IMG/VR virus record: IMGVR_UViG_3300027683_000009
Span: 1-37,038 of that record
Source: a virus
Lineage: Duplodnaviria; Caudoviricetes
DNA length: 37,038 nucleotides
Strand: one strand, 5' to 3'
Below, piece by piece: positions 13,428 to 37,038 of this stretch. The notes under the pieces are model-generated. The model ran no database searches and was not told the DNA's origin. It was given only the letters and a program-made list of their open reading frames with translations. Positions within the stretch are counted from its first letter, which is position 1, and every line of letters begins with the position of its first letter. The translations under genes and the position numbers were made by a program.

Positions 13428-13697
13428 TTATTTTTCTTTGTCATTTAATTCATAACTTATTGTGGTTGGTTTATCTGTAAATAATTTAACATTAAAAAGG
13501 AGAAATACTTTGTTTTTAAAACCAGGAACATAAACTGAATAGAATTTAAACTCATCTGGTTTTCTACCATGTTTTCTTGCTAATTCCTTTTGAGCCTTAC
13601 TTATCAACTCTTTTGGAACATCAGTTGTTTGTCCGTTTTTAAATTTTGTATTATCTTTTTCTTCTAAGATAATATTTAACTTATCTAATATATTCAT
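13428..13697 (-). CDS. Small hypothetical protein (possible head-internal protein)
   Basis: 89 aa; N-terminus MNILDKLNIILEE; 1-nt overlap with the upstream ferritin-like gene. Confidence 0.7.
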   Translation of the reverse strand: MNILDKLNIILEEKDNTKFKNGQTTDVPKELISKAQKELARKHGRKPDEFKFYSVYVPGFKNKVFLLFNVKLFTDKPTTISYELNDKEK

Positions 13698-14011
13698 TAT
13701 ATATCCTTCACCTCAGCTTCACCTTCTTCTTCGGCTTTTTCATAATCAGGATCAATTTGTTTCATAAGCTTTTTAAATTCACCTGCATGGACTTTTTCCT
13801 CTCTTGCAACATCTAACATAACCTTTTTAATGTTTTCATCTTTTGTAATATCTGCAAATTGTTCATATATATTTACAGCATCAAGTTCTGCTATAATTGC
13901 AAATCTAAGCATTTGTAGATTGGCAACTTTAGGTGATAAACCTTTAATTTTTTCCGGATTTATCTCAATAATTTCATTTATTTTTGGACTTAAAAATTGT
14001 GATAATCTCAT
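13697..14011 (-). CDS. Short ferritin-like (rubrerythrin/encapsulin-associated Flp type) protein
   Basis: LRFAIIAELDAVNIYEQ...VMLDVAREEKVHAGEF: E...ExxH di-iron ligands in a two-helix half-ferritin. Confidence 0.85.
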   Translation of the reverse strand: MRLSQFLSPKINEIIEINPEKIKGLSPKVANLQMLRFAIIAELDAVNIYEQFADITKDENIKKVMLDVAREEKVHAGEFKKLMKQIDPDYEKAEEEGEAEVKDI

Positions 14012-14014
14012 TTG

Positions 14015-14449
14015 TTATTCCTTCTCTACATTTTTTTCCATATCTTTTAATCTTGTATAATAATCAGGTATTTCTGTAAGATGATCCATGGCAATTTCTT
14101 TTGCTAATTTTTCATCATTTGTATGTTCCATTTCAATTTTAATACCTATTTTTAATTCTTTGGGATCAAAATCTTCAGGTTTCTTTTTATCGGCTAAACC
14201 ACCTTTTATTTTATCTTCCTTTAACATAGAACCAAGAATCATGTAAATATGTTCTTCAAATTCATGCTCATCTATATCTAATGATTTAGCGAATGAATGA
14301 ACTTGTCCATCCGATGGTTTAGGATTTTTTTTAAAAAAATCTTTTATTTTATTATGAATATTTTCCATATCCATTTCATTTAATTTTTTCTTTTTTAAAA
14401 CACTTCTTTCATAAACTTCATAAATTTTATCACGATCATAATTTGCCAT
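14015..14449 (-). CDS. DUF5661-like phage protein
   Basis: C-terminal IKGGLAD...ELKIGIKIEMEHT...AKEIAMDHL.EIPDYYTRL motif recognised from memory of this family. Confidence 0.7.
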   Translation of the reverse strand: MANYDRDKIYEVYERSVLKKKKLNEMDMENIHNKIKDFFKKNPKPSDGQVHSFAKSLDIDEHEFEEHIYMILGSMLKEDKIKGGLADKKKPEDFDPKELKIGIKIEMEHTNDEKLAKEIAMDHLTEIPDYYTRLKDMEKNVEKE

Positions 14450-15792: not shown

Positions 15793-16221
15793 TTATTCTT
15801 CAATAAGTTCCACTCTTACTCTAAGAATACCATCAACATTATGATGAACAGTAAATGTGCCATTATAAGGACTTCTATCTACTGAAAAATCATATAAACA
15901 AATCAATGGTTTACCTGTTGCTGTATCATCGTATATTACACCATATCTAACAGTGAAAGTTGCATTTGACCATGCAGGATTTGTAGCTGTCAATGTTGCG
16001 ATACCATCTAATTCTGTCCAAAGTACATCTGTTAGTAATTGACCGCCTGCGGTATATCCACTACCAGTTGTTAATTCACCTGTTAGGTCAGAATAAAATT
16101 CATCTGATGATAACGGATTATATGAATCTGTTAATAATACCATATATAAATCATCATTATCAAAATCTATTTCTTTATTACCTAATTTTTGTCCAAGTTT
16201 GTCATAAAGGAAATCTGCCAT
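15793..16221 (-). CDS. Virion appendage/minor tail protein (paralog C of a ~140 aa domain)
   Basis: KEIDFDND.L..LLT..Y.P...E...G.GYTAGG..L...W..ATFT.RY.VIYD.TA.GKPLICLYDF, near-identical in motif to 19612..20037 and the N-terminus of 16251..17549. Confidence 0.75.
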   Translation of the reverse strand: MADFLYDKLGQKLGNKEIDFDNDDLYMVLLTDSYNPLSSDEFYSDLTGELTTGSGYTAGGQLLTDVLWTELDGIATLTATNPAWSNATFTVRYGVIYDDTATGKPLICLYDFSVDRSPYNGTFTVHHNVDGILRVRVELIEE

Positions 16222-16250
16222 TATTTTTTACTCCATCACATTAATTTTTA

Positions 16251-17549
16251 TTAAGTTTGTACAAATATTTCCCATTCTGCATATATACTTATATTAGAAC
16301 AGGATTCATTTGTGTTTTCTATAATTGTATAAATTGCATTCACATCGGTTCCAGGTGTATATTCTTCACCTTCTATACTCCAAACACCACCATCTTCTAC
16401 TGCTTCCCAACTAATATCTAATGTTTCACCTTCAACAACATCAAAAAATTCTATTGCACTAACTCTAAATTGTAGTGCATCTGCAATCATTGAGATTTCA
16501 TCTATATCATAAGTGCCCCAAGTTAATTCTAAAATCATTCCACTTTCATAATAACTTTCTGAGCAAATATAATCACCATTTTTGTCTCTTAAAATCATTG
16601 CAAAATTTGGTGCACCTGTAAATGTTATACGCATATGCGTTGGCCTATAATCTGTTATCCAATCAGAACCTAATTTATCTTCTTCTCTTAACCACAACTC
16701 ATATGCGCCATCTGTAGTACTTAACCAATAACTACCACTTGGAATCCATTCACCTACGAAGTTATCAGGTATAATCTCCCATGCACCCCAGTAATCAGTA
16801 TTTGTAGTATCAAGTATATTATCAGGAATATCACCAACTTTATAGCAATGTATAGTAAAAGGACCATCTTCGGAAGAAGCTGTATAATAAGTATCTATAT
16901 AATCTAATTCACTTATTTCGGTAAGGTCAGTATAATTCACTGCTAAGAATTTATTAGCCTCAACATCATAAAGACTTGGTTCTCCTCCTTCACCACCAAA
17001 TTCACTATATGAAAAACTTATTTCAACATTAATACTACCCATTGCTGTTGCTGCATCATTAGAACCTAAACATACAGGTTCTTCGGGTGGTGGTTCTTCA
17101 GGTGGTGCTTCAGGTATAACAACATCCTTACCCATTTGTAATATTATATCATTATTAAAATTTAACAGTAATGTGCCATTTACTGGACTTTTGTTTTCTA
17201 AGAAATCATATAGGCAAATCAATGGTTTGCCTGAAGCTGTATTGTCATATATAACAGCATATCTAACTGTAAATGTGGCGAATGACCATGATGGACTTGT
17301 TCCTATAGTTAATCGTGTTACACCTGATGAACTGGGGACTTCTGTCCAACTAATATCTGTAAGTGTGGCACCACCAAGTGTATAACCAAAACCTGTGTTT
17401 ATTTCATTTGTTAAATCTGTATAATAAATATGGGATTGTGAAGGCATATATGCTGCTGTCAATAAACAAATTTTTAGAGTATCGTTATCTAAATCAATTT
17501 CTTTATTACCTAATTTTGCAGAAACACTATTATAAATAAAATTTGACAT
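16251..17549 (-). CDS. Virion appendage protein: paralog B domain, Pro-rich linker, acidic C-terminal domain
   Basis: N-terminal ~140 aa as above; PEAPPEEPPPEEP linker; C-terminal domain similar to the gp15 extension. Confidence 0.75.
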   Translation of the reverse strand: MSNFIYNSVSAKLGNKEIDLDNDTLKICLLTAAYMPSQSHIYYTDLTNEINTGFGYTLGGATLTDISWTEVPSSSGVTRLTIGTSPSWSFATFTVRYAVIYDNTASGKPLICLYDFLENKSPVNGTLLLNFNNDIILQMGKDVVIPEAPPEEPPPEEPVCLGSNDAATAMGSINVEISFSYSEFGGEGGEPSLYDVEANKFLAVNYTDLTEISELDYIDTYYTASSEDGPFTIHCYKVGDIPDNILDTTNTDYWGAWEIIPDNFVGEWIPSGSYWLSTTDGAYELWLREEDKLGSDWITDYRPTHMRITFTGAPNFAMILRDKNGDYICSESYYESGMILELTWGTYDIDEISMIADALQFRVSAIEFFDVVEGETLDISWEAVEDGGVWSIEGEEYTPGTDVNAIYTIIENTNESCSNISIYAEWEIFVQT

Positions 17550-17569
17550 TTTTTATTACCATCCCATTT

Positions 17570-18178
17570 TTATCTTTTTGTATTTGTTAAACCTTTCACA
17601 AAAACTGTATTGCTTTTTGTATTTGTTAAACCTTTCACAAAAACTGTATTGCTTTTTGTATTTGTTAAACCTTTAGTAAAAGTTATACCTCTTGTATTTG
17701 TTAGACCTTCAACTAAAGGAAATTTTAATTTTTCTATTGCTTCTACTATTATATCAAGTTGTGATATAATAAGTTCAGGTGTTAATAATAGTTGACTCTC
17801 ATCTCGTTTTAAATCAAGTATTTCAATTATTAACTCAATTGTATCTAATGGAACACCATCACCAATTGAAAATCCCTCATAATTATTTAAATTGATTATA
17901 ACTTCTTGTGTATCTAAATAGACTTTTTCTTGTAATGATAATTGGTCTATTATAAGGTTATGTTCTTCTAAAAATATATTACTACTAATTCTTAAATCAA
18001 TTAAATCAGGTTGTTCAATTATAAAATCAGGTTGATTTTCTAAATATATGTTTGTTGTAATACCTAATTCAATATCAAATAAATAAATTTTGAATTTTTG
18101 TTCTGCTAAATATGTAGCAACATTAATAGTATTTGTAATAGGTTCTATTATTGTTTTTGTTGTATAATAATGTGTCAT
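17570..18178 (-). CDS. Hypothetical virion protein with C-terminal 13-aa repeats
   Basis: 202 aa, I/L/E-rich; ends in GLTNT repeated 4 times at 13-aa spacing. Confidence 0.7.
   Translation of the reverse strand: MTHYYTTKTIIEPITNTINVATYLAEQKFKIYLFDIELGITTNIYLENQPDFIIEQPDLIDLRISSNIFLEEHNLIIDQLSLQEKVYLDTQEVIINLNNYEGFSIGDGVPLDTIELIIEILDLKRDESQLLLTPELIISQLDIIVEAIEKLKFPLVEGLTNTRGITFTKGLTNTKSNTVFVKGLTNTKSNTVFVKGLTNTKR
17575..17712. repeat. 39-bp in-frame tandem repeat (~3.5 copies)
   Basis: ttgtatttgttaaacctttcacaaaaactgtattgcttt repeated exactly twice, plus degenerate copies. Confidence 0.9.
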
Positions 18179-18384
18179 TTAGTTTTTTTATTTACTATTC
18201 TATATTTTGAACTAAAATCATTGGTTTTATTACATATTGCTTTTGTAATGGATGTCCATCCAGAAAAATTATTAAAATTTACACAGAATGGATTATAAAA
18301 ATAACTCACTCTAAGAAATTTTTTAAATGATATTAAGGTATTATAAAAAGAATTTGTATTCTTTTTTATATAGAAATGTGCCAT
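18175..18384 (-). CDS. Small hypothetical protein
   Basis: 69 aa filling the gap exactly; N-terminus MAHFY resembles MTHYY of the next gene. Confidence 0.55.
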   Translation of the reverse strand: MAHFYIKKNTNSFYNTLISFKKFLRVSYFYNPFCVNFNNFSGWTSITKAICNKTNDFSSKYRIVNKKTK

Positions 18385-18385
18385 T

Positions 18386-19600
18386 TTATATAAACCTTAT
18401 AATATAACAACTTGTACCACTATATTGCCATTGTATCCATGCTTCTTCGCAAATTGTATATGTTGATTCATTTGTTAATGAAACAGCAAAATTTACATCA
18501 AAAGTTAATGTATCACTTGTGTTACTTACAACTCTTGCCATTTGTCCCTGGCCAGGACCACTCATTATTATAACAGCTTTTCCAATCCATTCATTAGTTG
18601 ACCAACTTTTACTTGTATCTGTTAATAGATTAGTTGCACCTGCAGATGTTGTTGTTCCTGTATCCAATCTATATATTTCTACAGTATTTTCATAAAATTG
18701 AGCCGTTGAGTTTGGAATTTTCCAGAATGTTATATATTCATAAAGAAATCCATAAGTACTTGTTGAACTATAATATATATATCCTGGAAATGATCCATTA
18801 TATAGGGAATTTTCATCTGGGTCAACTGTTGTCATTGTACCTATAGACGCTACGGATGAAGACACATTATTTTGTGCTGCATTTGTATAAACATTATAAG
18901 AAAGACAATAAGCGTATGCTGTATTGCCGTTTATATTGTTTGTAAAGCAATATGGGTATGGTGTATTACCAATTTTAGCACCTGCACTCCAGTTTTGTGC
19001 TGTTGTTACAGTAACCGTGTTTGCTGATTTATTAACACCTGTTATTGTTACTCTCTCCATTGTATTTGTACTATTTTCTAACATTAAATGGGATTCACCA
19101 ACATAGAAATCATTTGCTTGACCAGAACCTAATTGTAGAGTTACACCTGTTCCTGCTGTTACACTGGATTGTAATGTTCCTAATGTATTCCAATATCTTG
19201 TAAACTTTCCCCAATAGAGACAATAATATGTAACACCTAATTTAAGTGTAACAAAACCAAAATTTTTGTTACCTGAAAACCATATAGTAAATGGGTCAGC
19301 ATCATAAGTAGCCAAATAATATGATGTTGCGGAATGTTTAAATGTACCAACATGTGTTGTTGCATTCCAATATGTATACATTGCAAAGTTTATTCTATTA
19401 GCTGTTGCATTGTTTAATTCAAAATACATATCCAATTCTGAACCATCTTCACCGCCATTATTTTTTAATACATAATATTTACTTGCTGACCATTGGTTAT
19501 CAACTAATGTCCAACCCGCAGCAACCATTGCAGTAACTATATAACTTAAAGCGTCAGCAGTATTCAAAACAGGTTTTGCAATTAATCTTTCTATAGCCAT
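18386..19600 (-). CDS. Virion structural/fibre-like beta-rich protein
   Basis: 404 aa rich in T/N/G/Y; LTDTSKSWSTNEWIG..V.I.SG.G.GQ...V.SNT..TLT module typical of phage appendage proteins. Confidence 0.65.
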   Translation of the reverse strand: MAIERLIAKPVLNTADALSYIVTAMVAAGWTLVDNQWSASKYYVLKNNGGEDGSELDMYFELNNATANRINFAMYTYWNATTHVGTFKHSATSYYLATYDADPFTIWFSGNKNFGFVTLKLGVTYYCLYWGKFTRYWNTLGTLQSSVTAGTGVTLQLGSGQANDFYVGESHLMLENSTNTMERVTITGVNKSANTVTVTTAQNWSAGAKIGNTPYPYCFTNNINGNTAYAYCLSYNVYTNAAQNNVSSSVASIGTMTTVDPDENSLYNGSFPGYIYYSSTSTYGFLYEYITFWKIPNSTAQFYENTVEIYRLDTGTTTSAGATNLLTDTSKSWSTNEWIGKAVIIMSGPGQGQMARVVSNTSDTLTFDVNFAVSLTNESTYTICEEAWIQWQYSGTSCYIIRFI

Positions 19601-19611
19601 TTTAACCTACC

Positions 19612-20037
19612 TTATGCACCGGATTCACTTCTAAATCTCATAACACCATTAACATTAAAATAAAGTGTAAATGTACCATAGTTGACGTTTTTATCACTTA
19701 AAAAGTCATATAAACAAATCAATGGTTTACCAGATGCAGTATCATCATATATTACAGCATATCTTGCTGTAAATGTGGCAAGAGTCCAAGCTGGGTCATT
19801 TGCACTTAATGTTGTTATACCAGAAGATTCGGTCCATGTAACACCTGTTAATAAATTACCACCTGTGGTGTATCCATTTCCACTTGCAACTTCATTTGTT
19901 AATTGTGCATAAAATTCATGTGCATTTGATGGAGTATATGTGTTTGTTAATAAACATACTTTTAAATTATCTGTATCCAAATCAATTTCTTTATTTCCTA
20001 CTTTTTGTCCAAACTTATCATAAATAAAATTTGCCAT
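19612..20037 (-). CDS. Virion appendage/minor tail protein (paralog A)
   Basis: 141 aa; same domain as 15793..16221. Confidence 0.75.
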   Translation of the reverse strand: MANFIYDKFGQKVGNKEIDLDTDNLKVCLLTNTYTPSNAHEFYAQLTNEVASGNGYTTGGNLLTGVTWTESSGITTLSANDPAWTLATFTARYAVIYDDTASGKPLICLYDFLSDKNVNYGTFTLYFNVNGVMRFRSESGA

Positions 20038-20918: not shown

Positions 20919-22460
20919 TTAAATATCTCTATTTGTCAACCAAGACCAATCCTCTATTATAGTATTTATATCAGATAATATACCCCAGGCATCTTCATCT
21001 TCATCATTTTTCTTAAATTCAAAAGTTTCATCAAGAATATCCATTTCAAAGATATAACAAGCCCAATATAGAGCAGATACAAGGTCATCATTTAAATCTT
21101 TACCAAAAAATTTTCCACCTTCTTCTATATATGAACCAAGTTCTTTTAATGTTTTTTCATGTCTGATTTCCAAACAACCATCTTCAATAATTTTTTTCAT
21201 AAGAAGAACCGCTTTTGGTTTTGTTGAACGAGATGCTCTTATTCCAAGTGATACTTCTTTTGAACCTGAGTTTACAAGATTTGAATTTTCATGCTCCCAC
21301 CAAAGTCTTCTAACAACAGCTGAACCTTCTGAGTTGTTTTCAACCATTATATAGGCATTATTATAATAAATGGAAAGTCTATGAATGATATCCGCAAAAT
21401 CATAAATATCTGTCATGTTATCATAAAAAACACCAACTTGGACCATACCTACTGGTTTAACACTTTCTATTTTTATAATTTGAATGACTGAATAATTTTC
21501 GCCCGAACCTTTAGCAACATCAACACCCATAACATATAGAGAATCCGTTTTTGGTTTTTCCCATATAAGGAGTCTATCATTTAAGTCTCTCATTACGGGG
21601 TCCACATTTTTTCTTAATATGACCCTTAGAACATCAGGTGATATAACAGTGTTTGTTGATCCAATAAACTGAACAGCAAATTCTTGGTCAAATTGTTTCT
21701 GACCAAGGTTTTTAATTTGTTCTATTGCCCAATTTTTATCTCTACCTGGAACCTTTTCCCATGATACTTTTGTATATACAAAAGTATTTTTACCAAACTC
21801 TGCTTCTGTATATATTCTATGAAAAATATTAAACAATCCATTTGGTGTGGATATGATAATAATCTTTGCTTCTTTTGAGGCTGAAATTGTAGGATAGTTG
21901 GCAGACCAAAACTCTTCTGCTTGACTTCCGGGAACAAATGCAAATTCATCACAGACCAATAGATTCATTGTCTCACCACGAAATGCGTCTGCTGATGTTG
22001 CTGATATAACTATTCTTGTTCCATTATCAAAAGAAATAAATGTTTTTGAGTATTCTGTAACACCCGGTTTTAACCATGTAGGTAAACATTCATAAGATTT
22101 TTTAATACGGTGGAGAATCATTTTAGCAGATGATTCTTTGTTTGAAACAATACCAATTGTTTTGTTCTCATTAAATATAGCATACCATATAACATATGAA
22201 GAAACAATAGTGGTTTTTCCTGATTGGCGGGAACAAAGTGCAACATTAAATCTATAATCTTGAAATTTTTGTAGTAGTTCTAATTGATAATCATAAGGTT
22301 CAAAAAAGATTTCACCTTTATCTGGATTTACAATCTTTACATACTTTATAAAATAATTAACACTTTCTGAACATTTTTGTAATTCTTGTATGTTTTCAGG
22401 AGAGTATTCTAATTCCTCTCTTGGCCTTTTAATAAATTTATCATCATACTTTACGGGCAC
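20919..22460 (-). CDS. Terminase large subunit, T4 gp17-like
   Basis: GTG start; PYDYQ Q-motif, Walker A SRQSGKTT, Walker B LLVCDEFAFV, ISTPNG, F.QEF...F.G, RNase H GVDVA.G.G, DDLV. Confidence 0.98.
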   Translation of the reverse strand: MPVKYDDKFIKRPREELEYSPENIQELQKCSESVNYFIKYVKIVNPDKGEIFFEPYDYQLELLQKFQDYRFNVALCSRQSGKTTIVSSYVIWYAIFNENKTIGIVSNKESSAKMILHRIKKSYECLPTWLKPGVTEYSKTFISFDNGTRIVISATSADAFRGETMNLLVCDEFAFVPGSQAEEFWSANYPTISASKEAKIIIISTPNGLFNIFHRIYTEAEFGKNTFVYTKVSWEKVPGRDKNWAIEQIKNLGQKQFDQEFAVQFIGSTNTVISPDVLRVILRKNVDPVMRDLNDRLLIWEKPKTDSLYVMGVDVAKGSGENYSVIQIIKIESVKPVGMVQVGVFYDNMTDIYDFADIIHRLSIYYNNAYIMVENNSEGSAVVRRLWWEHENSNLVNSGSKEVSLGIRASRSTKPKAVLLMKKIIEDGCLEIRHEKTLKELGSYIEEGGKFFGKDLNDDLVSALYWACYIFEMDILDETFEFKKNDEDEDAWGILSDINTIIEDWSWLTNRDI

Positions 22461-22499: not shown

Positions 22500-22507
22500 T
22501 ATTTATA
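22500..22507 (-). promoter_or_regulatory. T4-type late promoter TATAAATA for the large terminase
   Basis: Exact consensus immediately downstream of the spoVR terminator, 40 nt before the gp17 start. Confidence 0.7.
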
Positions 22508-22508
22508 T

Positions 22509-22548
22509 AAAAAAGAAGGGGAATGTTATGTAAAATAACATTCCCCTT
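22509..22548 (-). terminator. Intrinsic terminator after spoVR
   Basis: 14-bp stem aaggggaatgttat / ataacattcccctt, 5-nt loop, then T-tract on the minus strand. Confidence 0.88.
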
Positions 22549-22568
22549 TATTTATTTTCACCTGTTTT

Positions 22569-24152
22569 TTATATTAATTTTATTACAGGATTTGGTTTCT
22601 CAAATGGCGTTGATGAACCACTTTTAAAGACTGACCAGATATTATTATCCTTTTTTTCAGGTATATTTTTATTAGCATTTAAATCCAGAACTTCCACTTT
22701 TTCATTTATTATGGTTTCTAAATATACATCTTTACCCCATAGAGTTCTAATATGTTTCATTGTTCTTTTTGCATATTCAAGATCAAGGTCAACACCACTA
22801 TGTGAGTGTATCATATATAGATTACCACCTTTATAATTACCATCTGCTATTTCAATATTCGGTATATGTGAATGTGAAAAACTATTTATAATAACTTTGG
22901 CAACTGTTTTACTTTCATGTTTAGTTCTAACAATATCAATAGTGTCTCGTGTTTCTTTTAATACATAGATATACATTTTAAGTTTTTCTACAAGTTCAGG
23001 TGTTAAGAAGTCCTGTAGGAAAAACCAATCAGTATAACTTTTCATTACTTCCATCATCTTTTGATGACCACCCATTTCTTTTGTATCCCAGTTAGCTACC
23101 TGGTTTCTATTTTGACATTCTTCATATTCATCACCATGACGACCTTTATCCCATCTTTCAACTATATCATTCCATATTTCACATCCAATTAAATATGGAT
23201 TCATTTGTGTTGGACCCATTGCCTTAACAAGTGAATTTGCATAGTTATATTCTGCGTGGTCTTTACTATCAAGAGTGCCGTCCTCAATTAAATCTTGAAG
23301 AAGTTTTTGGTGCCAATATGTGGCAAAACCTTCATTCATATATTTTGTTTTAATTTGAGGCCAGTAATACCTACCTTCTTGTCGTAGAACTTCAAGAATA
23401 TCTTTTTCCCAATCAACAAGATTTTTTGAGTTATCAATTATATATCTTAATAAATCTCCGGTCGGTTCAACTGGAGTCTTATCACATAAAGACTTCCATA
23501 ATTCTTGATTAAATAACTCAACATCTTTCTTTACAAGGTCTTCAGTTAGATTTTGAAATATATCTCTAAATTCTGATTTTGATACTTTATGAAATGTTTT
23601 CTTACTATATTCAAATGCTTTCTTTCTTTTTTCATCTTCTGTTTCATTATCAAATGGTGATGAATGGAATTGAATAGAGTGTCCGGCATCAACAATTCTT
23701 TCAATGTTATCAATACCAAAATGACGTTCGTATTCCATAATTCTTTCAGATGACATTTGCATATATGAGATAATATCTCTCCGAGATTGTTGGAAATATT
23801 TATTCATTGTAAAAAATGCAACATGTCCAATAACATGGGCCATAACAAGACTTTGAACACCAAATGTATTTGACTTCATTAAATATGCTCTTGCTGGGTC
23901 CGAGTTAATAACAACTTCATATGGTAGACCAGCATGAACATGTTCATTTATTGTTCGGAGACGTTCATAGTCACGACCAAATTTCCAGTTAGATAAATTT
24001 CCTGGAATATGATATGCCATAATCTCTAACATCTTTTGATCAGGAATAACATCCCATTCAATATCACAATATTCAAGACCATATTTTTCACGGGCCAGTT
24101 GGTTCAGTCTATCTTCAACTTTGATAAGTTTTTGTAGTTCTGATCTATTCAT
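22569..24152 (-). CDS. spoVR: SpoVR/YcgB family protein
   Basis: W.FG..Y, YEVVINSDP..AYL...N......LVMAHV.GH..FF..N, DLL..I, PQIKTK.MNEGFATYWH, NPY..G, D..FL..FLT. Confidence 0.96.
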   Translation of the reverse strand: MNRSELQKLIKVEDRLNQLAREKYGLEYCDIEWDVIPDQKMLEIMAYHIPGNLSNWKFGRDYERLRTINEHVHAGLPYEVVINSDPARAYLMKSNTFGVQSLVMAHVIGHVAFFTMNKYFQQSRRDIISYMQMSSERIMEYERHFGIDNIERIVDAGHSIQFHSSPFDNETEDEKRKKAFEYSKKTFHKVSKSEFRDIFQNLTEDLVKKDVELFNQELWKSLCDKTPVEPTGDLLRYIIDNSKNLVDWEKDILEVLRQEGRYYWPQIKTKYMNEGFATYWHQKLLQDLIEDGTLDSKDHAEYNYANSLVKAMGPTQMNPYLIGCEIWNDIVERWDKGRHGDEYEECQNRNQVANWDTKEMGGHQKMMEVMKSYTDWFFLQDFLTPELVEKLKMYIYVLKETRDTIDIVRTKHESKTVAKVIINSFSHSHIPNIEIADGNYKGGNLYMIHSHSGVDLDLEYAKRTMKHIRTLWGKDVYLETIINEKVEVLDLNANKNIPEKKDNNIWSVFKSGSSTPFEKPNPVIKLI

Positions 24153-24170
24153 TTTATGTGTTTCCTTTTC

Positions 24171-25463
24171 TTATCGTTTTTTAAACAACATATGTTTAAG
24201 TGCTGGAAAAATATGTTCTTTTCCCCGTATAATGGATACAAGAAATCTATGATGTATATCTATATAAGCTTCTAATCCATCTACATTTGTTTTACCAAAT
24301 TTGAATTTACCTAAAATCTCTTTTAGTAAAACTCTCCAGGTATTTCCAACATCAATTTCAACATATGATAACATGTTAATGTTTTTTTGTAGCATTCTTT
24401 CAATTTCAATTACAGTATCTTTTGGATTAAAATCTTCTCCATCGGAGATATAGATACAGTAAGTATTCCATTCACTTACTGGAAATTCAGTTTCTATTTT
24501 ATAATTTACCAATTTAAATGCTGATGAACAATTTGTACCACCAGATTCACCTTTATGAAAGAATGTATCTTCATCAACTTCATTTGCTTCTGTTGTATGT
24601 GTAATAAATACAACTTCAACATTGTCATATACTTTTCTAAGAAATTCAACAAGCCAGAACAACATTGACCTTGCTAAATATTTTTTATTAATTGTCATTG
24701 AACCAGATACATCCATCATACAGAAGATTACAGCCTTTGATTGATATTCAACATCTTCTTCAATTTGTTTGAATCTCATATCATCATCTTCAATAAAAAC
24801 ATCATTATCATAAATCTTTTCTAATTTATTATTCTTTATAATATCAATGGCTTCTTCAATATCACCCCGTGCTTGAATCAAAGATGAGTGTGCTTCTTCT
24901 TGAGTACAACCACATTCATTCATAATTTCAATTGAATAGGAAACCATTCTCCTAATTGCTTCCATCATGGTTTTCTTTTTATGAATACGTGGCATTATAC
25001 CTTTTTTGGATGTAGTTTCAAATTTCCATCCTTTTGTAACCAAATCTTGTGCTTTTGTTTTTTCTTCAATCCAAGGAAGACCAAGATCATCAAACATGAT
25101 TTTGATTAAATAGTCAATATCAACCTCTGCTTCAAGATAATCAATTCCAGGTCTTTTACCGGGTTCACCTTCTTTACCTTGGCCGGGTTTTGGAATAGAA
25201 TCAATTATATCACCATCTGTATCACCTTGACCAATACCAGCTTTATCACCTTTTTCATTTTGGCCATATATGAAACGATAATCTTTTAAACCTCTAACGG
25301 GTATTTTTACCTTTCTATTACCCTTGTTTGTGATAATTGATTCTTCACCAATAACATCCTTTACATTTTCTCTGATGGATTTATCAATCTTTTTCTGGTG
25401 TCTTTCGGCATCCTTTATACCTTTTTCGGATAAATCCCAATCATCGTGTAATATAATACCCAT
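24171..25463 (-). CDS. yeaH: YeaH/YhbH (DUF444, vWA-like) protein
   Basis: DA.RH..K....I, EESII, KIPVRGL..YRF.YG, Gly-rich linker, D.RF, AV.FCMMDVSGSM MIDAS, HTTEA.EVDE..FFH.GESGGT..SSA, SDGED. Confidence 0.95.
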   Translation of the reverse strand: MGIILHDDWDLSEKGIKDAERHQKKIDKSIRENVKDVIGEESIITNKGNRKVKIPVRGLKDYRFIYGQNEKGDKAGIGQGDTDGDIIDSIPKPGQGKEGEPGKRPGIDYLEAEVDIDYLIKIMFDDLGLPWIEEKTKAQDLVTKGWKFETTSKKGIMPRIHKKKTMMEAIRRMVSYSIEIMNECGCTQEEAHSSLIQARGDIEEAIDIIKNNKLEKIYDNDVFIEDDDMRFKQIEEDVEYQSKAVIFCMMDVSGSMTINKKYLARSMLFWLVEFLRKVYDNVEVVFITHTTEANEVDEDTFFHKGESGGTNCSSAFKLVNYKIETEFPVSEWNTYCIYISDGEDFNPKDTVIEIERMLQKNINMLSYVEIDVGNTWRVLLKEILGKFKFGKTNVDGLEAYIDIHHRFLVSIIRGKEHIFPALKHMLFKKR

Positions 25464-25487
25464 TTTAAAACCCTTTCCGTTTAAATT

Positions 25488-25742
25488 TTAATCTTCTGAT
25501 TCTTCAACATCTTCATTCTTTACAGACTCTTTCTTTTTAGAACATTTATCATTTGTAGAAAAGCCCATTTTATGTTTTTTCTTTTTCTTTTTATTTTCAT
25601 AGCAATCATCATCATCAAACATTCTTATTTTATTTAAGAACTCTGTTTCTTCAACTTCATCAAAATTATCAAAGGAAGAGGCTATCACAGTTGTTTTTGA
25701 TTCGTCCTCAACATCTCCGATTTGTACAGTTATTCTAATCAA
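25488..25742 (-). CDS. Small acidic protein with poly-Lys patch, first gene of the yeaH-spoVR transcript
   Basis: TTG start with AGAGGA RBS, downstream of the promoter at 25774-25803. Confidence 0.65.
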   Translation of the reverse strand: MIRITVQIGDVEDESKTTVIASSFDNFDEVEETEFLNKIRMFDDDDCYENKKKKKKHKMGFSTNDKCSKKKESVKNEDVEESED

Positions 25743-25773
25743 TATATTATCCTCTCTTTCTTTTCTTTTTTAT

Positions 25774-25803
25774 ATTATACTATATTTATCAAAAGTTGTA
25801 AAC
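25774..25803 (-). promoter_or_regulatory. Sigma70/sigmaA-type (T4 early-like) promoter for orf-yeaH-spoVR
   Basis: GTTTACA-17 bp-TATAAT. Confidence 0.85.
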
Positions 25804-25808
25804 TAAAT

Positions 25809-25845
25809 AAAAAAGGCTGGGTGAATATAGATACACCCAGCCTTT
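25809..25845 (-). terminator. Intrinsic terminator after prkA
   Basis: aaaggctgggtg / cacccagccttt inverted repeat with T-tract on the minus strand. Confidence 0.88.
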
Positions 25846-25863
25846 CCCAATCATAAGAAACTT

Positions 25864-27840
25864 TTACGATTGTTTTCTCAGTATTTCACCGACAAATGAA
25901 AGAAGAACATTTGCACAGTGTTCACAGTAACCTTTTTCCATCAAGGTCTTAAACGCTTTACTTCTCGCTTTCATCCTCTTTGGATCGGTACTTGTGGTAT
26001 TTACAATTGACAGATTGACCACATTTTTAAGATCACTCATTAGTTTCTTTTCAATCGCTTCTTTCAAAGGTGCATAAGAATCATATTTAAATTCCTTGCC
26101 ACGATCTCCGCAACTTGATTTATGAACAAATATACCGTTTCTAAATTCATCTTTGGAATTTACAGGGACGCCAATAAGTTCTTCAAGTGATCGCATCAGT
26201 TTTTCATCAGGTGAACTATATTCACCCGTTGCTGTATCTTCAATCTTTTCTTTTCTACAGTAAGCTCCGACATTCAACATATATCGGTTAAACAATTCGG
26301 TTGCTTGTTCGTCATAAGCGTGAAGGAATGCCATATTGATTTCTTTTTTGGCAAACTCACGGAACTCAGCAAGTGCTGAATCTTTTTCAGCAACCAACAG
26401 GTTTGTAAAGTTCTTAATATCCTGTTCTTCAATACCAGTGTGGTGATCAAAGTTTTGTTTAAGTGCTCGCAGAACATCAATTGGATTGATACAGTTTTTA
26501 TCTTCTTTTGATGCGAGTGCTATATTAAGTGCATTGATAATAAACCTTGGAGATATACCTTGGTCCATACCTTCACCATTTCTTCTCCCATCCTCACGAA
26601 TCTTTTTAATATCAACTTCTTCCTTTTTAAATTCGTTAGATGTTCTACCATCATAGAGTTTCATTTTTTCAATCAAAGAGGAAACTTTGGTAGATTTCTT
26701 TAGCCTTGTTAATACGGCAAACTGTGCTGCCAATTCAAGGGTACCTGGAGCGATATGAATATTCCTAAAATCAGATTCTTGAATCATTTTCTTATAAATT
26801 TCAATTTCTTCGGATACATTCAAATTCCAGGGTACAATTACTTTATACATACGGTCATGAAGTGCTTCATTTTTCTTGTCCGATTTAAATGTATCATACT
26901 CTGTTTGGTTTGTATGCGAAAGAATCAATTCATCAAGATAAATCTGTGGAAAACCAGGTGACTTGATTACTTGTTCTTGTGCCGCTGAAATAAGAACATA
27001 GTGAAATTTAATATCTGCTTTTAAAATTTCAATATATTCAATCAATCCACGGTTGGCAACTTGCAATTCACCGTCAAAGCTAAATGCTCGGGGATCGGTT
27101 TCACCGTAACGAGCAATCTTAGCCATATTTACCCGACCGATTAACTCGGTAATATCTTGAGATTTTGGGTCGGATGGTTGAAATGTGCCAATTGCAATTC
27201 TTTCCTGTTCGGATGGTATTACTGCTGTAACCGGGATTTCAGACCAACGAACAGTTCCATCATCGTCAGTATAATTTTCTTTAACAACTTGACGACAATG
27301 AGGACAAAGATAACCCTCTATTTTAATACCCAACTTTTCTTCCCAATATGCTCGGTCATTGATTGGAATTGCATGCAAAGGTTCTTCATTGATCGGACAA
27401 CCTTTGATTGCAAACATTGGTGTATCATCTTTTTCAAGACCTCGCTTTAATAGCGCCGCGATTGTAGACTTACCACTCGCGACTGGGCCCACCATGATTA
27501 AAATTCTTTTTCCTGTTTCAGTCCTACGTGCAGACGCTTTCAAGAATTTCATAACATCATGGATAGCCATCTTTGATTCAAGACCAAAGATTTTTCCATC
27601 AAAAAACTTATACTCCACGAGGTCTTCATACCCCGCTAATTTAACATCATTTGGTACATCATTAACACCGTATTTCATAATCATATTGAAAATACGACCT
27701 GGGGCAAAATTAGCAACCTCAGGATTTTTATGAACTAATTCTAAATAATCAAGCGAGTTTCCTTCCCATTTATGAAACGGATTAATTTTCTTTTGGGAAA
27801 GAATTGCTTGCTTGAAGTCTTCCATTAAAGGTGATAACAT
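25864..27840 (-). CDS. prkA: PrkA/YeaG family AAA+ ATPase ('serine protein kinase')
   Basis: Walker A GPVASGKST, GCPINEEPL, LCPHC, F.PSDPKSQDI.EL.G, DPRAFSFDGEL.VANRG..E..E..K, HTN..EY, EAL.DR, GISPRF, GYCEHCAN. Confidence 0.97.
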   Translation of the reverse strand: MLSPLMEDFKQAILSQKKINPFHKWEGNSLDYLELVHKNPEVANFAPGRIFNMIMKYGVNDVPNDVKLAGYEDLVEYKFFDGKIFGLESKMAIHDVMKFLKASARRTETGKRILIMVGPVASGKSTIAALLKRGLEKDDTPMFAIKGCPINEEPLHAIPINDRAYWEEKLGIKIEGYLCPHCRQVVKENYTDDDGTVRWSEIPVTAVIPSEQERIAIGTFQPSDPKSQDITELIGRVNMAKIARYGETDPRAFSFDGELQVANRGLIEYIEILKADIKFHYVLISAAQEQVIKSPGFPQIYLDELILSHTNQTEYDTFKSDKKNEALHDRMYKVIVPWNLNVSEEIEIYKKMIQESDFRNIHIAPGTLELAAQFAVLTRLKKSTKVSSLIEKMKLYDGRTSNEFKKEEVDIKKIREDGRRNGEGMDQGISPRFIINALNIALASKEDKNCINPIDVLRALKQNFDHHTGIEEQDIKNFTNLLVAEKDSALAEFREFAKKEINMAFLHAYDEQATELFNRYMLNVGAYCRKEKIEDTATGEYSSPDEKLMRSLEELIGVPVNSKDEFRNGIFVHKSSCGDRGKEFKYDSYAPLKEAIEKKLMSDLKNVVNLSIVNTTSTDPKRMKARSKAFKTLMEKGYCEHCANVLLSFVGEILRKQS

Positions 27841-27891
27841 CTAAAAACTCCTTTCTTTTGTTTTTTATTTTATCTCTCACTCTTTAAAAAC

Positions 27892-27920
27892 ATTATAACA
27901 CACGGAATAAAAATTGTAAA
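27892..27920 (-). promoter_or_regulatory. Sigma70/sigmaA-type promoter with extended -10 for prkA
   Basis: TTTACA-17 bp-TATAAT with TGTG.TATAAT. Confidence 0.85.
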
Positions 27921-27927
27921 TATTTTT

Positions 27928-28383
27928 TTATTCTTTTGGTTCTTTTAACAATTTTAAAACATCTTCTCTGGAGGCAATTATTAGATTTTGATTTTTTGGT
28001 GCCTCTTTCTTTTTTCTTTTCATTTCAATTTCTTTATCTTTTAATAATAACATACGGTTTCTTATTTGTAAATATACTTGGTAATTTTCATCTGTTATTA
28101 ATTCTTTACTTGCTTGTGTTACTGAGTTTATTAAACCTGTTGCTACTTCAACAAGTCTCGCTGTTATATTTCCATTATTTAATTCTTCTTCAACAGTATC
28201 TAATATTTTATTTGCTCTTTCTATATTATCTCTTATTATATTTCTTGGGTTATTTTCTTTTTCCCATTCTTCTTCAAATTTATCTGGTCCACTTTCAGAT
28301 ACTTCTGGTTCCAACTCAATAGTTTCATCATGTTGGTTGTCTTGCATATTAAATTCTTCTTCTAAATTTTGTCTATCTAACAT
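27928..28383 (-). CDS. Terminase small subunit, T4 gp16-like
   Basis: R..I...IE......AR..EVA..LI.SV......L...NQNLIIASREDVLKLLK matches the gp16 pattern (PRAYEV..QL..; N.LFVGST.EL.K.L). Confidence 0.8.
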   Translation of the reverse strand: MLDRQNLEEEFNMQDNQHDETIELEPEVSESGPDKFEEEWEKENNPRNIIRDNIERANKILDTVEEELNNGNITARLVEVATGLINSVTQASKELITDENYQVYLQIRNRMLLLKDKEIEMKRKKKEAPKNQNLIIASREDVLKLLKEPKE

Positions 28384-28877
28384 TGTATTTTTTCCTTAAC
28401 AATACTATTCAATTTTTCTATGGTTTCATCACTTGATTTGTGTAATATGCCAATACCTCCGTTATCTTCCCATTCATTTATGTTTTGTTCAAAATCATCA
28501 ATTAAAATAGAATTAGAATTTGAATATAACTTTTTTTCTTTTCTATGGCATATAATTGCATCTTTATAAAATTCATAACCAAGATTATTTTTTATCCAGT
28601 CCAACTTACCGTTTCTTACATCTTCATGTACTGTAAAATTACCACGAGCAGCAGCTGATAGTAAAGTTGGTTTATATGTATTTATACCTTTCCATAGATT
28701 TTTACCATCTATTGTCCAAGGATTACTTGCCCAGAATTTTCTACCTGCTTTAACCAGTAGAAAAAACCTTTTCTCCATATCATCTATGTCCCAAAAATTT
28801 TCACAAAAATTTGTTACATTTGTTTTCCAATCTACCAATACATCATCCATGTCACAATAGATTTTAAATTTTTTCAT
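28377..28877 (-). CDS. 5'(3')-deoxyribonucleotidase, NT5C/HAD family
   Basis: IYCDMDDVLVD (DxD motif), FW, K..W, ILIDD...N...W...GG.GILH. Confidence 0.88.
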   Translation of the reverse strand: MKKFKIYCDMDDVLVDWKTNVTNFCENFWDIDDMEKRFFLLVKAGRKFWASNPWTIDGKNLWKGINTYKPTLLSAAARGNFTVHEDVRNGKLDWIKNNLGYEFYKDAIICHRKEKKLYSNSNSILIDDFEQNINEWEDNGGIGILHKSSDETIEKLNSIVKEKIQC

Positions 28878-28907
28878 TTATATATCCCTTCTTATTTTTA
28901 TAAAATC

Positions 28908-28936
28908 ATTATAACATAAATTATGAAAAATGTAAA
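28908..28936 (-). promoter_or_regulatory. Sigma70/sigmaA-type promoter with extended -10 for the nucleotidase and gp16
   Basis: TTTACA-17 bp-TG.TATAAT, directly after the capsid terminator. Confidence 0.85.
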
Positions 28937-34474: not shown

Positions 34475-37038
34475 TACATTATCTCCGCATCAAAAGAATA
34501 TAAACCCGCATATGCTCTAAAAGAACCATTTGCTGTTACTGTTACTCTATGTATCCAACCAATAGTATTAGAAACTAAATCATAGTCCGTACAGTTATTA
34601 TATGTTGGTGTTGTTATAATAGCAGCATCAGGATTATCTCGCATTCTTGTATGAAATGTATCACCATCAATTCCACAAACAACACCTGCTAAACCATATC
34701 TATAACCATAACCTTGACCAGTTGCATAACTATTCATATAATATCGTTGACACATTGCAGTTTCTACTACCGTAGGTCTAAACTCAAATGGTGTTGCAAT
34801 CGTTCCTGGTTCCAATTGAACTTGTGCCAATCTGAAATAGTTAGATGTACTATTGATATTATTATCAATATTAGATGTTGCTAATTTATTTGCATTTTCC
34901 CAGGTATCCACACTTGAAACATGTCTATCAGAACCACAAGCAAGAACAAAAAAGATTTCTAATCCACTACCATTTGTGTAATTCCAAGTTCCAATACCAC
35001 CACCATCAAATACTATTAATATTTCTTTTTTCTCCCAAGTAGCAGATGAGTCTATAGTAAAATCTGTTGCGTAAGATGCATCATTAGTACTATTTCTCAT
35101 TGATATACAGTATGTTCCTGTTTTATATGCTTTAACCCAAAATGATAATACACCAGTTTTACCTTGAATATATTTGAAATCATAACCTTCAATATTGTAA
35201 CCAATCATAAAATATTGAGTAGCACCAATACTTGAATCTGCTGTTGTAATTTGAACATTAAGTGATGTTGTAGGTGCTCCTTGATTTGCAGGAACATCTG
35301 AATTGGATGTAATAGTACATGCGGCGTCACTACTTGCAACATATCTCCATCTATCAGAAGTATAAGCATTTGATGCTGGTGATGTAAATGTTGCTCCTCT
35401 TGCCCAAACTTGAAAATTTCCATTTATGATTAGATTTTTATGTGTATAGGTATCTACAATATATTCGGTTAATCTATTAACATCCTCTTTAGCACTTGCA
35501 GATAACTCTAATGTTTGAAGGTTATTCTCATTATCAATATATTCGGTTAATCTATTATCACCTTCATCTATTGCAGCAGATAGGTTGGTAGATAATGTAT
35601 TTAAACTTTGGTCAATATATTCGGTTAACCTATTATCACCTTCATCTATAGAAGCAGATAACTCCAATGTTTGGAGATTATTTGATAGGTCAATATACTC
35701 ATATAACCTATTATCACCTTCATCTATAGAAGCAGATAGATTGATGGTCTTGCTATCTATATAATTTCTAACAGCATTATCACTTTCAACACTTGCGGCA
35801 GATAATGAATCTGATAGTGTGTTTATATATTCGGTTAATCTATTAACATCCTCTTTAGAACTTGCAGATAAGTTGGTAGATAAGGTTGATATGTTACTAT
35901 CAATATATTCGGTTAATCTATTATCACCTTCATCTATTGCAGCAGATAGACTATTAGATAAGGTATTTAAGTTTTGGTCTATATATTCATATAGTCTGTT
36001 ATCTTCCTCTTTTGAAGATGCAGATAATATACTTGATGATGTTAATAAATGCTCATATAACCTATTATCACCTTCATCTATTGCTCCTGAAAGGTTGACA
36101 GTCTTACTATCAATATATTCGGTTAATCTATTATCACCTTCATCTATTGCAGCAGATAGGTTGGTAGATAATGTATTTAAACTTTGGTCAATATATTCAT
36201 ATAGTCTGTTATCTTCCTCTTTTGAAGATGCAGATAAGTTTATAGATAATGTATTTAAATTTTGGTCAATATACTCATATAACCTATTATCACCTTCATC
36301 TATTGCTCCTGAAAGGTTAATTGTTGATAGAGTATAATCTATATATTCATATAGACGATTATCTTCCTCTTTTGAAGATGCAGATAAGTTGGCAGTCTTA
36401 CTATCAATATATTCGGTTAACCTATTATCACCTTCATCTATTGCTCCTGAAATACTGGTAGATAATGTATTTAAACTTTGGTCAATATATTCATATAGTC
36501 TGTTATCTTCCTCTTTTGAAGATGCAGATAAACTTGTTGATGTGGTTGATATATTATTATCTATATATTCGGTTAATCTATTATCACCTTCATCTATTGC
36601 AGCAGATAGACTATTAGATAAAGTATTTAAATTTTGGTCTATATATTCATAAATCCTATTATCACCTTCATCTATTGCTCCTGAAAGACTGATGGTCTTA
36701 CTATCTATATAATTTCTAACAGCATTATCACCTTCAATGCTTGCAGCAGATAACGAATCTGATAATGTGTTTATATATTCGGTTAATCTATTATCACCTT
36801 CATTTATTGCCCCTGAAAGGTTGGTAGATAAGGTATTTAAGTTTTGGTCTATATATTCGGTTAACCTATTATCACCTTCATCTATTGCAGCAGATAGACT
36901 ATTAGATAAAGTATTTAAATTTTGGTCAATATATTCGGTTAACCTATTATCACCTTCATCTATTGCTCCTGAAATACTGGTAGATAAGGTTGATAAAGCA
37001 TAATCTATATACTCATATAACCTATTATCACCTTCATC
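34474..37038 (-). CDS. Long tail fibre/whisker protein (5' end off-window): coiled-coil repeats plus carbohydrate-binding-like C-terminal domain
   Basis: Frame stays open upstream of the track's TTG at 35667 (checked codon by codon for about 240 nt; repeat phase is kept to the edge); C-terminus KNLIINGNFQVW.RG...DRW...LSFWVK...VQLE.G..ATPFE.RP...E...CQRYY is typical of fibre tips. Confidence 0.85.
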   Translation of the reverse strand, partial: DEGDNRLYEYIDYALSTLSTSISGAIDEGDNRLTEYIDQNLNTLSNSLSAAIDEGDNRLTEYIDQNLNTLSTNLSGAINEGDNRLTEYINTLSDSLSAASIEGDNAVRNYIDSKTISLSGAIDEGDNRIYEYIDQNLNTLSNSLSAAIDEGDNRLTEYIDNNISTTSTSLSASSKEEDNRLYEYIDQSLNTLSTSISGAIDEGDNRLTEYIDSKTANLSASSKEEDNRLYEYIDYTLSTINLSGAIDEGDNRLYEYIDQNLNTLSINLSASSKEEDNRLYEYIDQSLNTLSTNLSAAIDEGDNRLTEYIDSKTVNLSGAIDEGDNRLYEHLLTSSSILSASSKEEDNRLYEYIDQNLNTLSNSLSAAIDEGDNRLTEYIDSNISTLSTNLSASSKEDVNRLTEYINTLSDSLSAASVESDNAVRNYIDSKTINLSASIDEGDNRLYEYIDLSNNLQTLELSASIDEGDNRLTEYIDQSLNTLSTNLSAAIDEGDNRLTEYIDNENNLQTLELSASAKEDVNRLTEYIVDTYTHKNLIINGNFQVWARGATFTSPASNAYTSDRWRYVASSDAACTITSNSDVPANQGAPTTSLNVQITTADSSIGATQYFMIGYNIEGYDFKYIQGKTGVLSFWVKAYKTGTYCISMRNSTNDASYATDFTIDSSATWEKKEILIVFDGGGIGTWNYTNGSGLEIFFVLACGSDRHVSSVDTWENANKLATSNIDNNINSTSNYFRLAQVQLEPGTIATPFEFRPTVVETAMCQRYYMNSYATGQGYGYRYGLAGVVCGIDGDTFHTRMRDNPDAAIITTPTYNNCTDYDLVSNTIGWIHRVTVTANGSFRAYAGLYSFDAEIM
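35460..37038. repeat. Coding tandem repeat, about 22 units of 66/72/78 bp
   Basis: Core ctattatcaccttcatc (IDEGDNRL) and variant ctgttatcttcctc (SKEEDNRL) recur at spacings that are multiples of 3. Confidence 0.92.

Follow-up and report, generated by a model that had tools for sequence, protein, structure and literature searches.

The 37,038-nucleotide viral fragment IMGVR_UViG_3300027683_000009 from IMG/VR (in the following, the window) is a piece of a T4-like phage that carries a complete prkA-yeaH-spoVR gene set between its small and large terminase genes. In our judgement this trio likely works as an ATP-driven protein-recycling machine which breaks down host cytoplasmic proteins for the building of virions in slow-growing, energy-poor hosts, an interpretation that we hold with about as much confidence as doubt. 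The three genes are intact, fixed in a clade of related phages and under purifying selection, they are accompanied by promoter- and terminator-like sites, and they descend beside copies from anaerobe-rich phyla. A more far-reaching form of the interpretation is put forward tentatively, as something we would sooner doubt than assume: the trio could be a new class of three-part ATP-dependent protease, composed of an AAA+ ring, a vWA adaptor with a UBA-like substrate catcher and a zinc peptidase with a relocated general base, and could represent the missing machine of bacterial starvation proteolysis, fixed by a phage lineage as an early-expressed core set that digests the host proteome for virion parts.

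The head, neck and tail genes of the window (portal, prohead protease, scaffold, major capsid, large terminase, neck, tail-sheath stabiliser, tube, sheath and baseplate) are all located on the minus strand, and so are the genes of the trio. Pfam and PHROG searches identified homologues of gp20, gp21, gp22, gp23, gp16, gp17, gp13, gp14, gp15, gp18 and gp19. Between the terminase genes the order is prkA, an open reading frame (ORF) of 84 amino acids (aa), yeaH and spoVR, with all three trio genes at full length. The gene prkA (yeaG or spdA; 25864..27840) encodes an AAA+ ATPase of 658 aa (Pfam AAA_PrkA, E 8e-111; PrkA C-terminal domain, E 3e-66), yeaH (yhbH; 24171..25463) a DUF444 protein of 430 aa (E 4e-94) and spoVR (ycgB; 22569..24152) a protein of 527 aa (Pfam SpoVR, E 1e-97, plus SpoVR_C). 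These profile searches, which an earlier note on this DNA had proposed, gave bit scores over the Pfam cut-offs for all three families (371 and 224 against 25 for PrkA, 317 against 27 for YeaH, 327 and 42 for SpoVR). The scores stay below the NCBIfam equivalog cut-offs (PRK15455, 316 against 576; TIGR02877, 325 against 468; PRK11767, 217 against 679), and the trio is thus a subtype different from the E. coli and Bacillus models. The earlier note had read three intact genes with their key motifs between gp16 and gp17, and this description is borne out by the ORFs, the Pfam matches and the motifs GPVASGKS (Walker A), DVSGS, HVIGH and NEGFATYWH. The large terminase gene terL (gp17-like; 20919..22460, minus strand) matches Terminase_6N/6C and PHROG profiles, and the small terminase gene terS (gp16-like, 151 aa; 27928..28383, minus strand) is assigned by a weak match to phrog_445 (E 8e-6) together with synteny. 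The terS homologue in L205 matches phrog_445 at 7e-8, and in relatives without the trio a terS homologue lies 0.3-2.9 kb upstream of TerL.

Chimeric assembly and recent capture from a host were rejected. The entire block aligns with two IMG/VR contigs, L001 at 99.7% and L002 at 99.9%, single contigs from two Logan runs (X1 and X2, each flagged as a possible source of the DNA) cover both junctions, and the viral copies form a clade of their own as described below. In run X12, which is not flagged as a possible source, each junction is bridged on a separate contig. The guanine and cytosine content of the trio block is level with that of its flanks. One low-depth contig in X2 seemed to skip positions 22576-28926; its short side comprises 21 letters only, as in two other such joints, and it was treated as chance.

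To analyze the distribution of the trio we used a PrkA search of IMG/VR, which yielded 40 loci (41 candidate stretches) with the order terS-prkA-yeaH-spoVR-terL in nearly all of them, and we added alignment searches with TerL and the major capsid protein (MCP) to avoid a trio-biased sample; the search patterns were derived from trio-bearing phages. Among the TerL-found loci (80 kept of 202) the trio is located between the terminase genes in 38 of the 38 loci with both genes; a survey of the gp16-gp17 junction had been suggested in the earlier note. The capsid search (80 loci kept of 188 matches listed, the total being at least 188) revealed the trio in 24 of 39 loci with both terminase genes and an empty gap in 15 of 39 among the matches listed. 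For all 199 viral loci taken together, 50 of the 64 distinct terS loci contain the trio and 14 of 64 are empty. In an MCP tree of 85 rows, built by a quick search with Shimodaira-Hasegawa-like approximate likelihood ratio test (SH-aLRT) support only and with row L193 on a very long branch, a single 61-row branch (SH-aLRT 97) unites every trio row (34) and every partial row (13) with 13 uninformative rows and a single empty one, and 13 of the 14 empty rows lie outside this branch. The empty row within it (L172) is a contig of only 11.6 kb, which points to loss or relocation of the trio. Two changes suffice to explain the distribution on the TerL tree (80 rows), and both trees correspond to one gain and one loss. 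In addition, no PrkA was found anywhere in the five empty-site records, one of which is 98% complete. The trio was thus gained once in an ancestor and kept by its descendants.

The ratio of nonsynonymous to synonymous substitution rates (dN/dS) in 11 close pairs, which were hand-picked and include some saturated dS values, is 0.03-0.15 for PrkA, 0.02-0.20 for YeaH and 0.06-0.23 for SpoVR, far below the value of 1 that the earlier note had associated with relaxed selection and similar to TerL (0.02-0.17, 9 pairs). Judged by these ratios, the trio is under purifying selection. Pairwise distances at 25 loci correlate with those of TerL for YeaH (Spearman 0.76), SpoVR (0.65) and the capsid protein (0.86). 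Six relatives (L031, L038, L040, L090, L092 and L164) carry LAGLIDADG inteins, up to three per gene in PrkA and up to two in SpoVR; they are inserted at the Walker A motif of PrkA and directly after EVVIN and NEGFA of SpoVR. Inteins favour essential motifs. In-frame inserts also occur in the portal and TerL genes of relatives.

The transcription signals of the locus, all on the minus strand, suggest how the trio may be expressed. A sigma-70-type promoter-like site (TTTACA-17-TATAAT with TG, 11 of 12 positions matching) lies upstream of prkA at 27892..27920, and a sequence scan detected sites with the same TTTACA-17-TATAAT boxes upstream of the 84-aa ORF, yeaH and spoVR (25774..25802) and upstream of a 5'-nucleotidase-like gene and terS (28908..28936). 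These three are the best sites between 19 and 33 kb, carry identical boxes and are all located in gaps before genes; the scan of this region as a whole gave no excess over shuffled sequences, so that position and conservation carry the promoter argument. Terminator-like hairpins with a U tail follow prkA (25808..25849; -25.5 kcal/mol, z -5.3) and spoVR (22516..22548; z -5.0) as well as the capsid gene (z -6.7), and none was found between terS and prkA. The box TATAAATA, which we take to be of the T4 late type linked to T4 gp55, was found by a box scan upstream of terL, after the spoVR hairpin (22500..22507), and again within the nucleotidase-like ORF, some 300 nt ahead of terS (28679..28686).

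By an untuned score, 13 of 56 prkA genes in the relatives have a sigma-70-class site ahead of them (0.1 expected), the figures for terS and terL being 17 of 48 and 0 of 90. A tuned pattern, which was fitted after viewing these same loci, finds the early class before prkA in 21/56, terS in 29/73, yeaH in 5/59 and spoVR in 1/59, and in no case before portal, scaffold, capsid, terL or gp13. The late box precedes terL in 48 of 89 loci (4.3 expected) and terS in 35 of 73; it shows no excess before prkA (2/56, 3.2 expected) and is absent before yeaH and spoVR (0/59 each). The strong consensus promoter class was found before none of 38 cellular prkA genes. We read this as early expression of the trio, with late read-through from terS into prkA being possible given the late box upstream of terS and the lack of a hairpin between these two genes. 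Several observations weigh against early expression. Trio loci have an early-type site ahead of terS or prkA in 32 of 45 cases and empty loci in 0 of 14, a contrast that amounts to about one evolutionary event and not to 59 independent cases, since the two kinds of loci are separate clades; 13 of the 45 trio loci have no such site; the late box at 35 of 73 terS genes makes late expression possible; and the tuned pattern is not independent of the loci to which it was applied.

Turning to the proteins, phage PrkA falls into the PrkA/YeaG family of AAA+ proteins, and ATPase activity and ring formation can be predicted for it. It contains the motifs GPVASGKS (Walker A), IEYIE (Walker B), SHTN and ALHDR and a YG loop at 245-246, and G123, K124, S125, E268/E271, N311 and R330 are invariant in 22 rows; the roles given to these residues (Walker A and B, sensor, arginine-finger-like) are those which we presume from the motifs. 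A solved PrkA homologue is available (9XIP, E 7e-153; also 9XIQ and 9XIR). In the Pfam scan only PrkA families matched at E<=0.001 and no MoxR family was found. Cysteines C148, C179/C182, C450, C528 and C639/C642 are also invariant and may form zinc sites.

YeaH consists of an N-terminal arm, a UBA-like three-helix insert and a C-terminal vWA domain. The model of the C-terminal half folds as vWA (167 Foldseek matches at E<=0.001, vWA domains on top), and its metal ion-dependent adhesion site (MIDAS; D251-x-S253-x-S255, T310, D341) is invariant in 81 rows. The insert (residues ~163-215; 24819..24977, minus strand) resembles UBA_HYPK at E 6e-4, which is under the Pfam cut-off, with a match at E<=1 in 11 of 24 YeaH members; in the alignment it is common to the viral and the sister cellular rows and absent from the Clostridium and Epulopiscium rows. 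Complex prediction, which the earlier note had recommended, gave an interface score (ipSAE) of 0.73 for YeaH with SpoVR compared with 0.00 for the best of three controls; 116 of 157 solved complexes and 2 of 215 mismatched pairs reach this mark, counts that hold roughly since own alignments were used here. Contact agreement between runs was at least 89% and the partner pLDDT (predicted local distance difference test) at least 82. The predicted interface comprises YeaH 2-25 and 58-92, so that the N-terminal arm of YeaH is predicted to bind SpoVR; the putative metal residues of SpoVR are not among the residues listed for it. Matches to the vWA half of YeaH alone were found in 15 records of Bacillus phages and in one of a Xanthomonas phage, and these records are absent from the PrkA and SpoVR search results.

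The SpoVR model (mean pLDDT 76) was subjected to an exhaustive structure comparison, and zinc peptidases and their relatives appear throughout the 50 listed rows. The listed zinc peptidases range from Z 12.9 to 8 and include 3o0y (Z 12.9, root mean square deviation (rmsd) 3.3, 187 residues aligned), 3cia (Z 11.3, rmsd 3.8, 177 aligned) and thermolysin (Z 8.4), where a Z under ~13 can in a helical model reflect a common arrangement. The families were assigned mainly by title, and on this basis we take 3o0y to be of the DUF885 type and 3cia to be an M1 aminopeptidase. In 95 rows (54 viral, 37 from genomes, 4 from cultured or huge phages) E79, H106, H110 and E274 are present without exception and Y320 in 94. 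In the model H106 and H110 are located on helix 97-116 and E274 on helix 270-290, and the order E...HxxxH...EG...Y echoes the GAMEN...HExxH...EG...Y of M1 enzymes. SpoVR is thus predicted to have a gluzincin-like fold with an H/H/E metal site, metal binding and hydrolysis being putative. The limited Z scores weigh against this assignment, and so do further results. The position of the HExxH glutamate (V107) is occupied by V in 86, A in 6 and C in 3 of the 95 rows and never by E, and for this reason SpoVR is not filed as a gluzincin member, only as working like one. Foldseek with the SpoVR model returned nothing at E<=0.001, the best weak rows being dipeptidyl peptidase III, and a profile-profile comparison (hhalign) of SpoVR with seven M1 domains gave no match (probability 5.7%). 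A PDB sequence search found no solved SpoVR homologue, and an ESM Atlas search in which SpoVR families were skipped gave no usable hit. A literature search that reached few subscription papers found none on SpoVR as a zincin or peptidase, none on structures 9XIP-9XIR and none on the function of the phage-borne trio.

An unfoldase, an adaptor and a peptidase-fold subunit are the simplest joint reading of the three proteins. PrkA would act as a ring unfoldase and YeaH as the vWA adaptor joining PrkA to SpoVR, with the UBA-like insert perhaps helping to catch substrates. SpoVR would cut peptides with an unusual general base, for which the invariant E79 is a candidate, or would hold substrates for a host peptidase. 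Host RNA polymerase would start early expression, late read-through into prkA could follow from the terS late promoter, and the phage would gain amino acids and energy for building virions. According to the accessible part of PMC13684143, E. coli yeaG is needed for a broad, nonspecific starvation proteolysis which yields amino acids and ATP and for which no protease is named. Purified B. anthracis PrkA alone showed negligible protease activity, with contamination suspected, in the portion available of PMC13001217, a result compatible with a partner peptidase. Cofitness of the three genes was seen in six bacteria (10.1101/072470, available in part), and ycgB and yeaG mutations appear as alternatives in one evolution experiment (10.64898/2026.07.20.739708, likewise). 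The view of the earlier note that the trio acts as a unit agrees with this cofitness, with the joint retention across the clade and with the predicted YeaH-SpoVR complex.

Other points weigh against protein recycling by the three proteins. The main text of PMC13684143, as far as it was available, does not mention yeaH or ycgB, and it ties the energy benefit to respiration, so that hosts living by fermentation may not profit from it. PrkA of B. subtilis is reported to cleave casein slowly by itself (PMC9512850, accessible sections). PrkA distances follow those of TerL weakly (Spearman 0.35, 25 loci), and the activity, expression and host of the phage trio are all putative.

It is possible, if rather improbable, that the same machine serves targeted removal or remodelling, unfolding or destroying a few host proteins such as defence proteins, regulators or enzymes of central metabolism, with SpoVR possibly an inactive scaffold. 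The missing HExxH glutamate would suit such a scaffold, the UBA-like insert could confer specificity, early-type promoters suit a host takeover, and the phenotypes of the cellular trio vary by species in the accessible part of 10.1101/072470. However, the E. coli process (SPD) is described as largely nonspecific in the available text of PMC13684143, and among phages whose hosts probably differ the trio is as strongly conserved as the core genes, with no arms-race divergence seen. Unlikely in our view is a role as life support, by which a starvation programme would let a starved, infected cell survive until nutrients are available again, the infection being stalled and not feeding a burst. Much of the RpoS-dependent survival of E. 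coli is attributed to yeaG in the same source, again as available, and the runs in which this DNA occurs carry the labels sediment, soil and wetland, most of them flagged as possible sources. Biochemically this would be the same machine as for protein recycling and nothing here separates the two purposes. Strong consensus promoters would presumably not be starvation-specific.

The earlier note had also seen meaning in the position between the terminase genes, and a third alternative is that the trio helps head assembly or packaging as an AAA+/vWA chaperone whose clients would be the terminase, the scaffold or the prohead. The frequency of the position (50 of 64 distinct loci with both genes), its retention through inversions, the late box before terS and the phiYS40 trio three genes from terL would all suit such a helper. 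Nevertheless we consider it very unlikely. Sister phages with the same head genes package their DNA without PrkA (0 of the 5 empty-site records), the late box is not enriched before the trio genes, and the predicted terminators isolate yeaH-spoVR in the window. In L034 the trio sits among UvsX, gp46, dNMP kinase, thymidylate synthase and ribonucleotide reductase genes, that is, among recombination and nucleotide genes, and unrelated passenger genes and homing endonucleases also gather in the terminase interval of relatives. Because of the predicted own promoters and terminators, the promoter counts and the relocated trio in L034, the terS-terL gap is an address, the insertion site of the ancestor, and not a sign of a packaging function; the supposed tie to the terminase was given up. 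The inversions concern L026, L080 and L088, where the segment from terS to terL, trio included, is flipped as a whole with respect to the capsid and neck genes. In L200 (15490-17406) a viral-clade trio lies away from terminase genes, with an ATPase of an ATP-dependent protease family (phrog_4871) 2.4 kb downstream.

The origin of the trio was analyzed with a GTDB scan, in which two short patterns found 64 loci and which is hence incomplete, and with a PrkA tree of 94 rows after 93% thinning, from which the 13 most distant myxococcal rows were left out. The scan revealed cellular operons with 53-60% PrkA identity in Spirochaetota, Desulfobacterota, Fibrobacterota and Planctomycetota. In the tree the viral copies form one clade (support 96-97) that is sister to these cellular copies (100), and the topology holds with 53 added full-length 50%-cluster representatives (support 98). 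Near-identity to a bacterial chromosome with no viral clade, which the earlier note had named as a refutation, is thus not what was found. Five rows from metagenome-assembled genomes (MAGs) at or in the viral clade (L200, L201, L202, L204, L205) resemble binned phage DNA, with terS or capsid genes adjoining the trio in L201, L202 and L205, and their taxon labels were therefore unused as hosts. Clostridium and Epulopiscium PrkA are far from the viral clade. As placed by this tree, the closest cellular trio copies come from anaerobe-rich phyla, not from spore-formers. A Gram-negative host is hinted at by the 162-kb relative G011, which carries MotA/TolQ/ExbB, glycine-zipper and lytic-transglycosylase families and in which no sporulation family was found among the 131 of its 175 ORFs that were scanned.

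For these reasons we give very little credence to a steering of sporulation or dormancy in a spore-forming host, which the earlier note had proposed. The family names and the Bacillus phenotypes (PMC9512850, as available) invite it, yhbH-like genes occur in Bacillus phages, and the accessible part of PMC8940887 interprets a viral spoVR in this way; however, besides the sister phyla and the envelope genes of G011, the hosts of the cultured trio phages are Thermus and Ralstonia. Signalling by a Ser/Thr kinase, as given in old annotations, is scarcely credible, since database names and the YeaG kinase reports cited in 10.1101/072470 and 10.64898/2026.07.20.739708 are set against the lack of any kinase family match in the Pfam scan and the lack of kinase activity of B. 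subtilis and B. anthracis PrkA (PMC9512850; PMC13001217; all four available in part).

The remaining features of the window and its relatives are described here in their own right. The 84-aa ORF (25488..25742, minus strand, TTG start) is acidic as the earlier note had stated (23 D/E against 16 K/R), matches no family (a Pfam search gave nothing usable) and has a dN/dS of 0.125 in one pair. Among 114 inserted ORFs it clusters with four closest relatives only, and it was rejected as a core part of the system, contrary to what that note had implied; it is an accessory gene. A 5'(3')-deoxyribonucleotidase-like gene (28377..28877, minus strand; phrog_2643, E 2e-24) sits as a variable passenger in the gap from the capsid gene to terS, and few relatives have it. 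Positions 653-3517 contain four tandem paralogues of ~240 aa (phrog_11975, function unassigned in PHROG), 11153-13411 a tail-sheath stabiliser of 752 aa with ~500 extra C-terminal residues that match no Pfam family, 13697-14449 a rubrerythrin/encapsulated-ferritin-like gene adjoining DUF5661 among the neck genes, and 15793-20037 three phrog_644 paralogues with unassigned genes between gp13 and gp14, shared with the closest relatives only. At the right end (35459-37038) many short repeats resemble the first 70 codons of a 397-aa tail-fibre-like gene and continue in L001-L003; they are possibly a cassette array for fibre variation. Relatives measure 190-236 kb, and we take the phage to be ~200 kb or larger. 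At least half of the stretch is contained in 14 of the 17 listed runs, labelled freshwater sediment, soil, wetland or plain metagenome, of which 11 may be its source; no RNA dataset is among the 17.

In G011 a four-gene run (L282:8330-11249) consists of an 88-aa ORF ending in VAG, a 300-aa ORF, ThiF/E1 and Prok-JAB and resembles a bacterial ubiquitin-like tagging system; the 88-aa ORF is ubiquitin-like by its look, with no Pfam hit. ThiF also occurs in G006, G007, G008, G012 and G013, in phages with and without the trio. A tie of the YeaH insert to these ThiF/JAB genes was considered and found unsupported, as ThiF is equally frequent in records with the trio (3 of 5) and in empty ones (3 of 5).

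Bacteria lose a third of their proteins in starvation by a process for which YeaG is needed and no protease has been named, and the predictions made here point to SpoVR. Candidate residues can be offered (SpoVR E79, H106, H110, E274 and Y320; YeaH 58-92), and the cultured Thermus phages make the trio testable. If phages have acquired the trio repeatedly and one lineage retains it as it would a capsid gene, the trio would give large phages a way to multiply in cells that are starved and poor in energy. The presence of the trio in cells and its annotation in phages were already known; tested here were the single gain with empty-site sisters, the promoters of the early type, the UBA-like insert common to viral and sister cellular rows, the arguments at residue level for and against SpoVR as a peptidase, and the predicted binding of YeaH to SpoVR.

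Comparison with known systems places the phage trio closest to the cellular prkA-yeaH-spoVR operon of Desulfobacterota, Spirochaetota and Fibrobacterota, which has the same families in the same order, 53-60% PrkA identity and the UBA-like insert and is the sister clade. In contrast to this operon, the phage trio is located in a head-gene block, has the consensus promoter class and forms its own viral clade. The earlier note had implied that phages lack the trio, which does not hold: the same three families are found in lytic phage genomes, namely in the Thermus phages phiYS40, TMA, MN1, Lalka and phiLo, in Ralstonia phage RsoM2USA and in four huge uncultured phages, and they are annotated as serine kinase, SpoVR and conserved protein (PMC8504454, available sections). 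With 27-36% PrkA identity and positions on other tree branches these trios are separate acquisitions; they are not located between terS and terL, and the order in the Thermus phages differs. The E. coli SPD acts via YeaG/SpdA, a member of the same AAA+ family, but it is chromosomal and RpoS-driven, and the main text of PMC13684143, to the extent available, gives neither a protease nor roles for YeaH and YcgB. SpoVR resembles the gluzincins (M1 aminopeptidase, thermolysin, M3, M32) and DUF885 in its predicted fold and in the H-x3-H...E...Y arrangement, and differs from gluzincins in the absence of the HExxH glutamate and of M1 profile similarity and in a third ligand 164 residues downstream instead of ~19. 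RavA-ViaA and CbbQ-CbbO are MoxR AAA+/vWA pairs, with an AAA+ ATPase gene beside a MIDAS-bearing vWA gene as in the window. The earlier note had compared the trio with such pairs, and the AAA+/vWA machine was the right kind of reading; the ATPase, however, belongs to the PrkA family and not to MoxR, and in the phage trio a third partner with a predicted peptidase fold is fixed.

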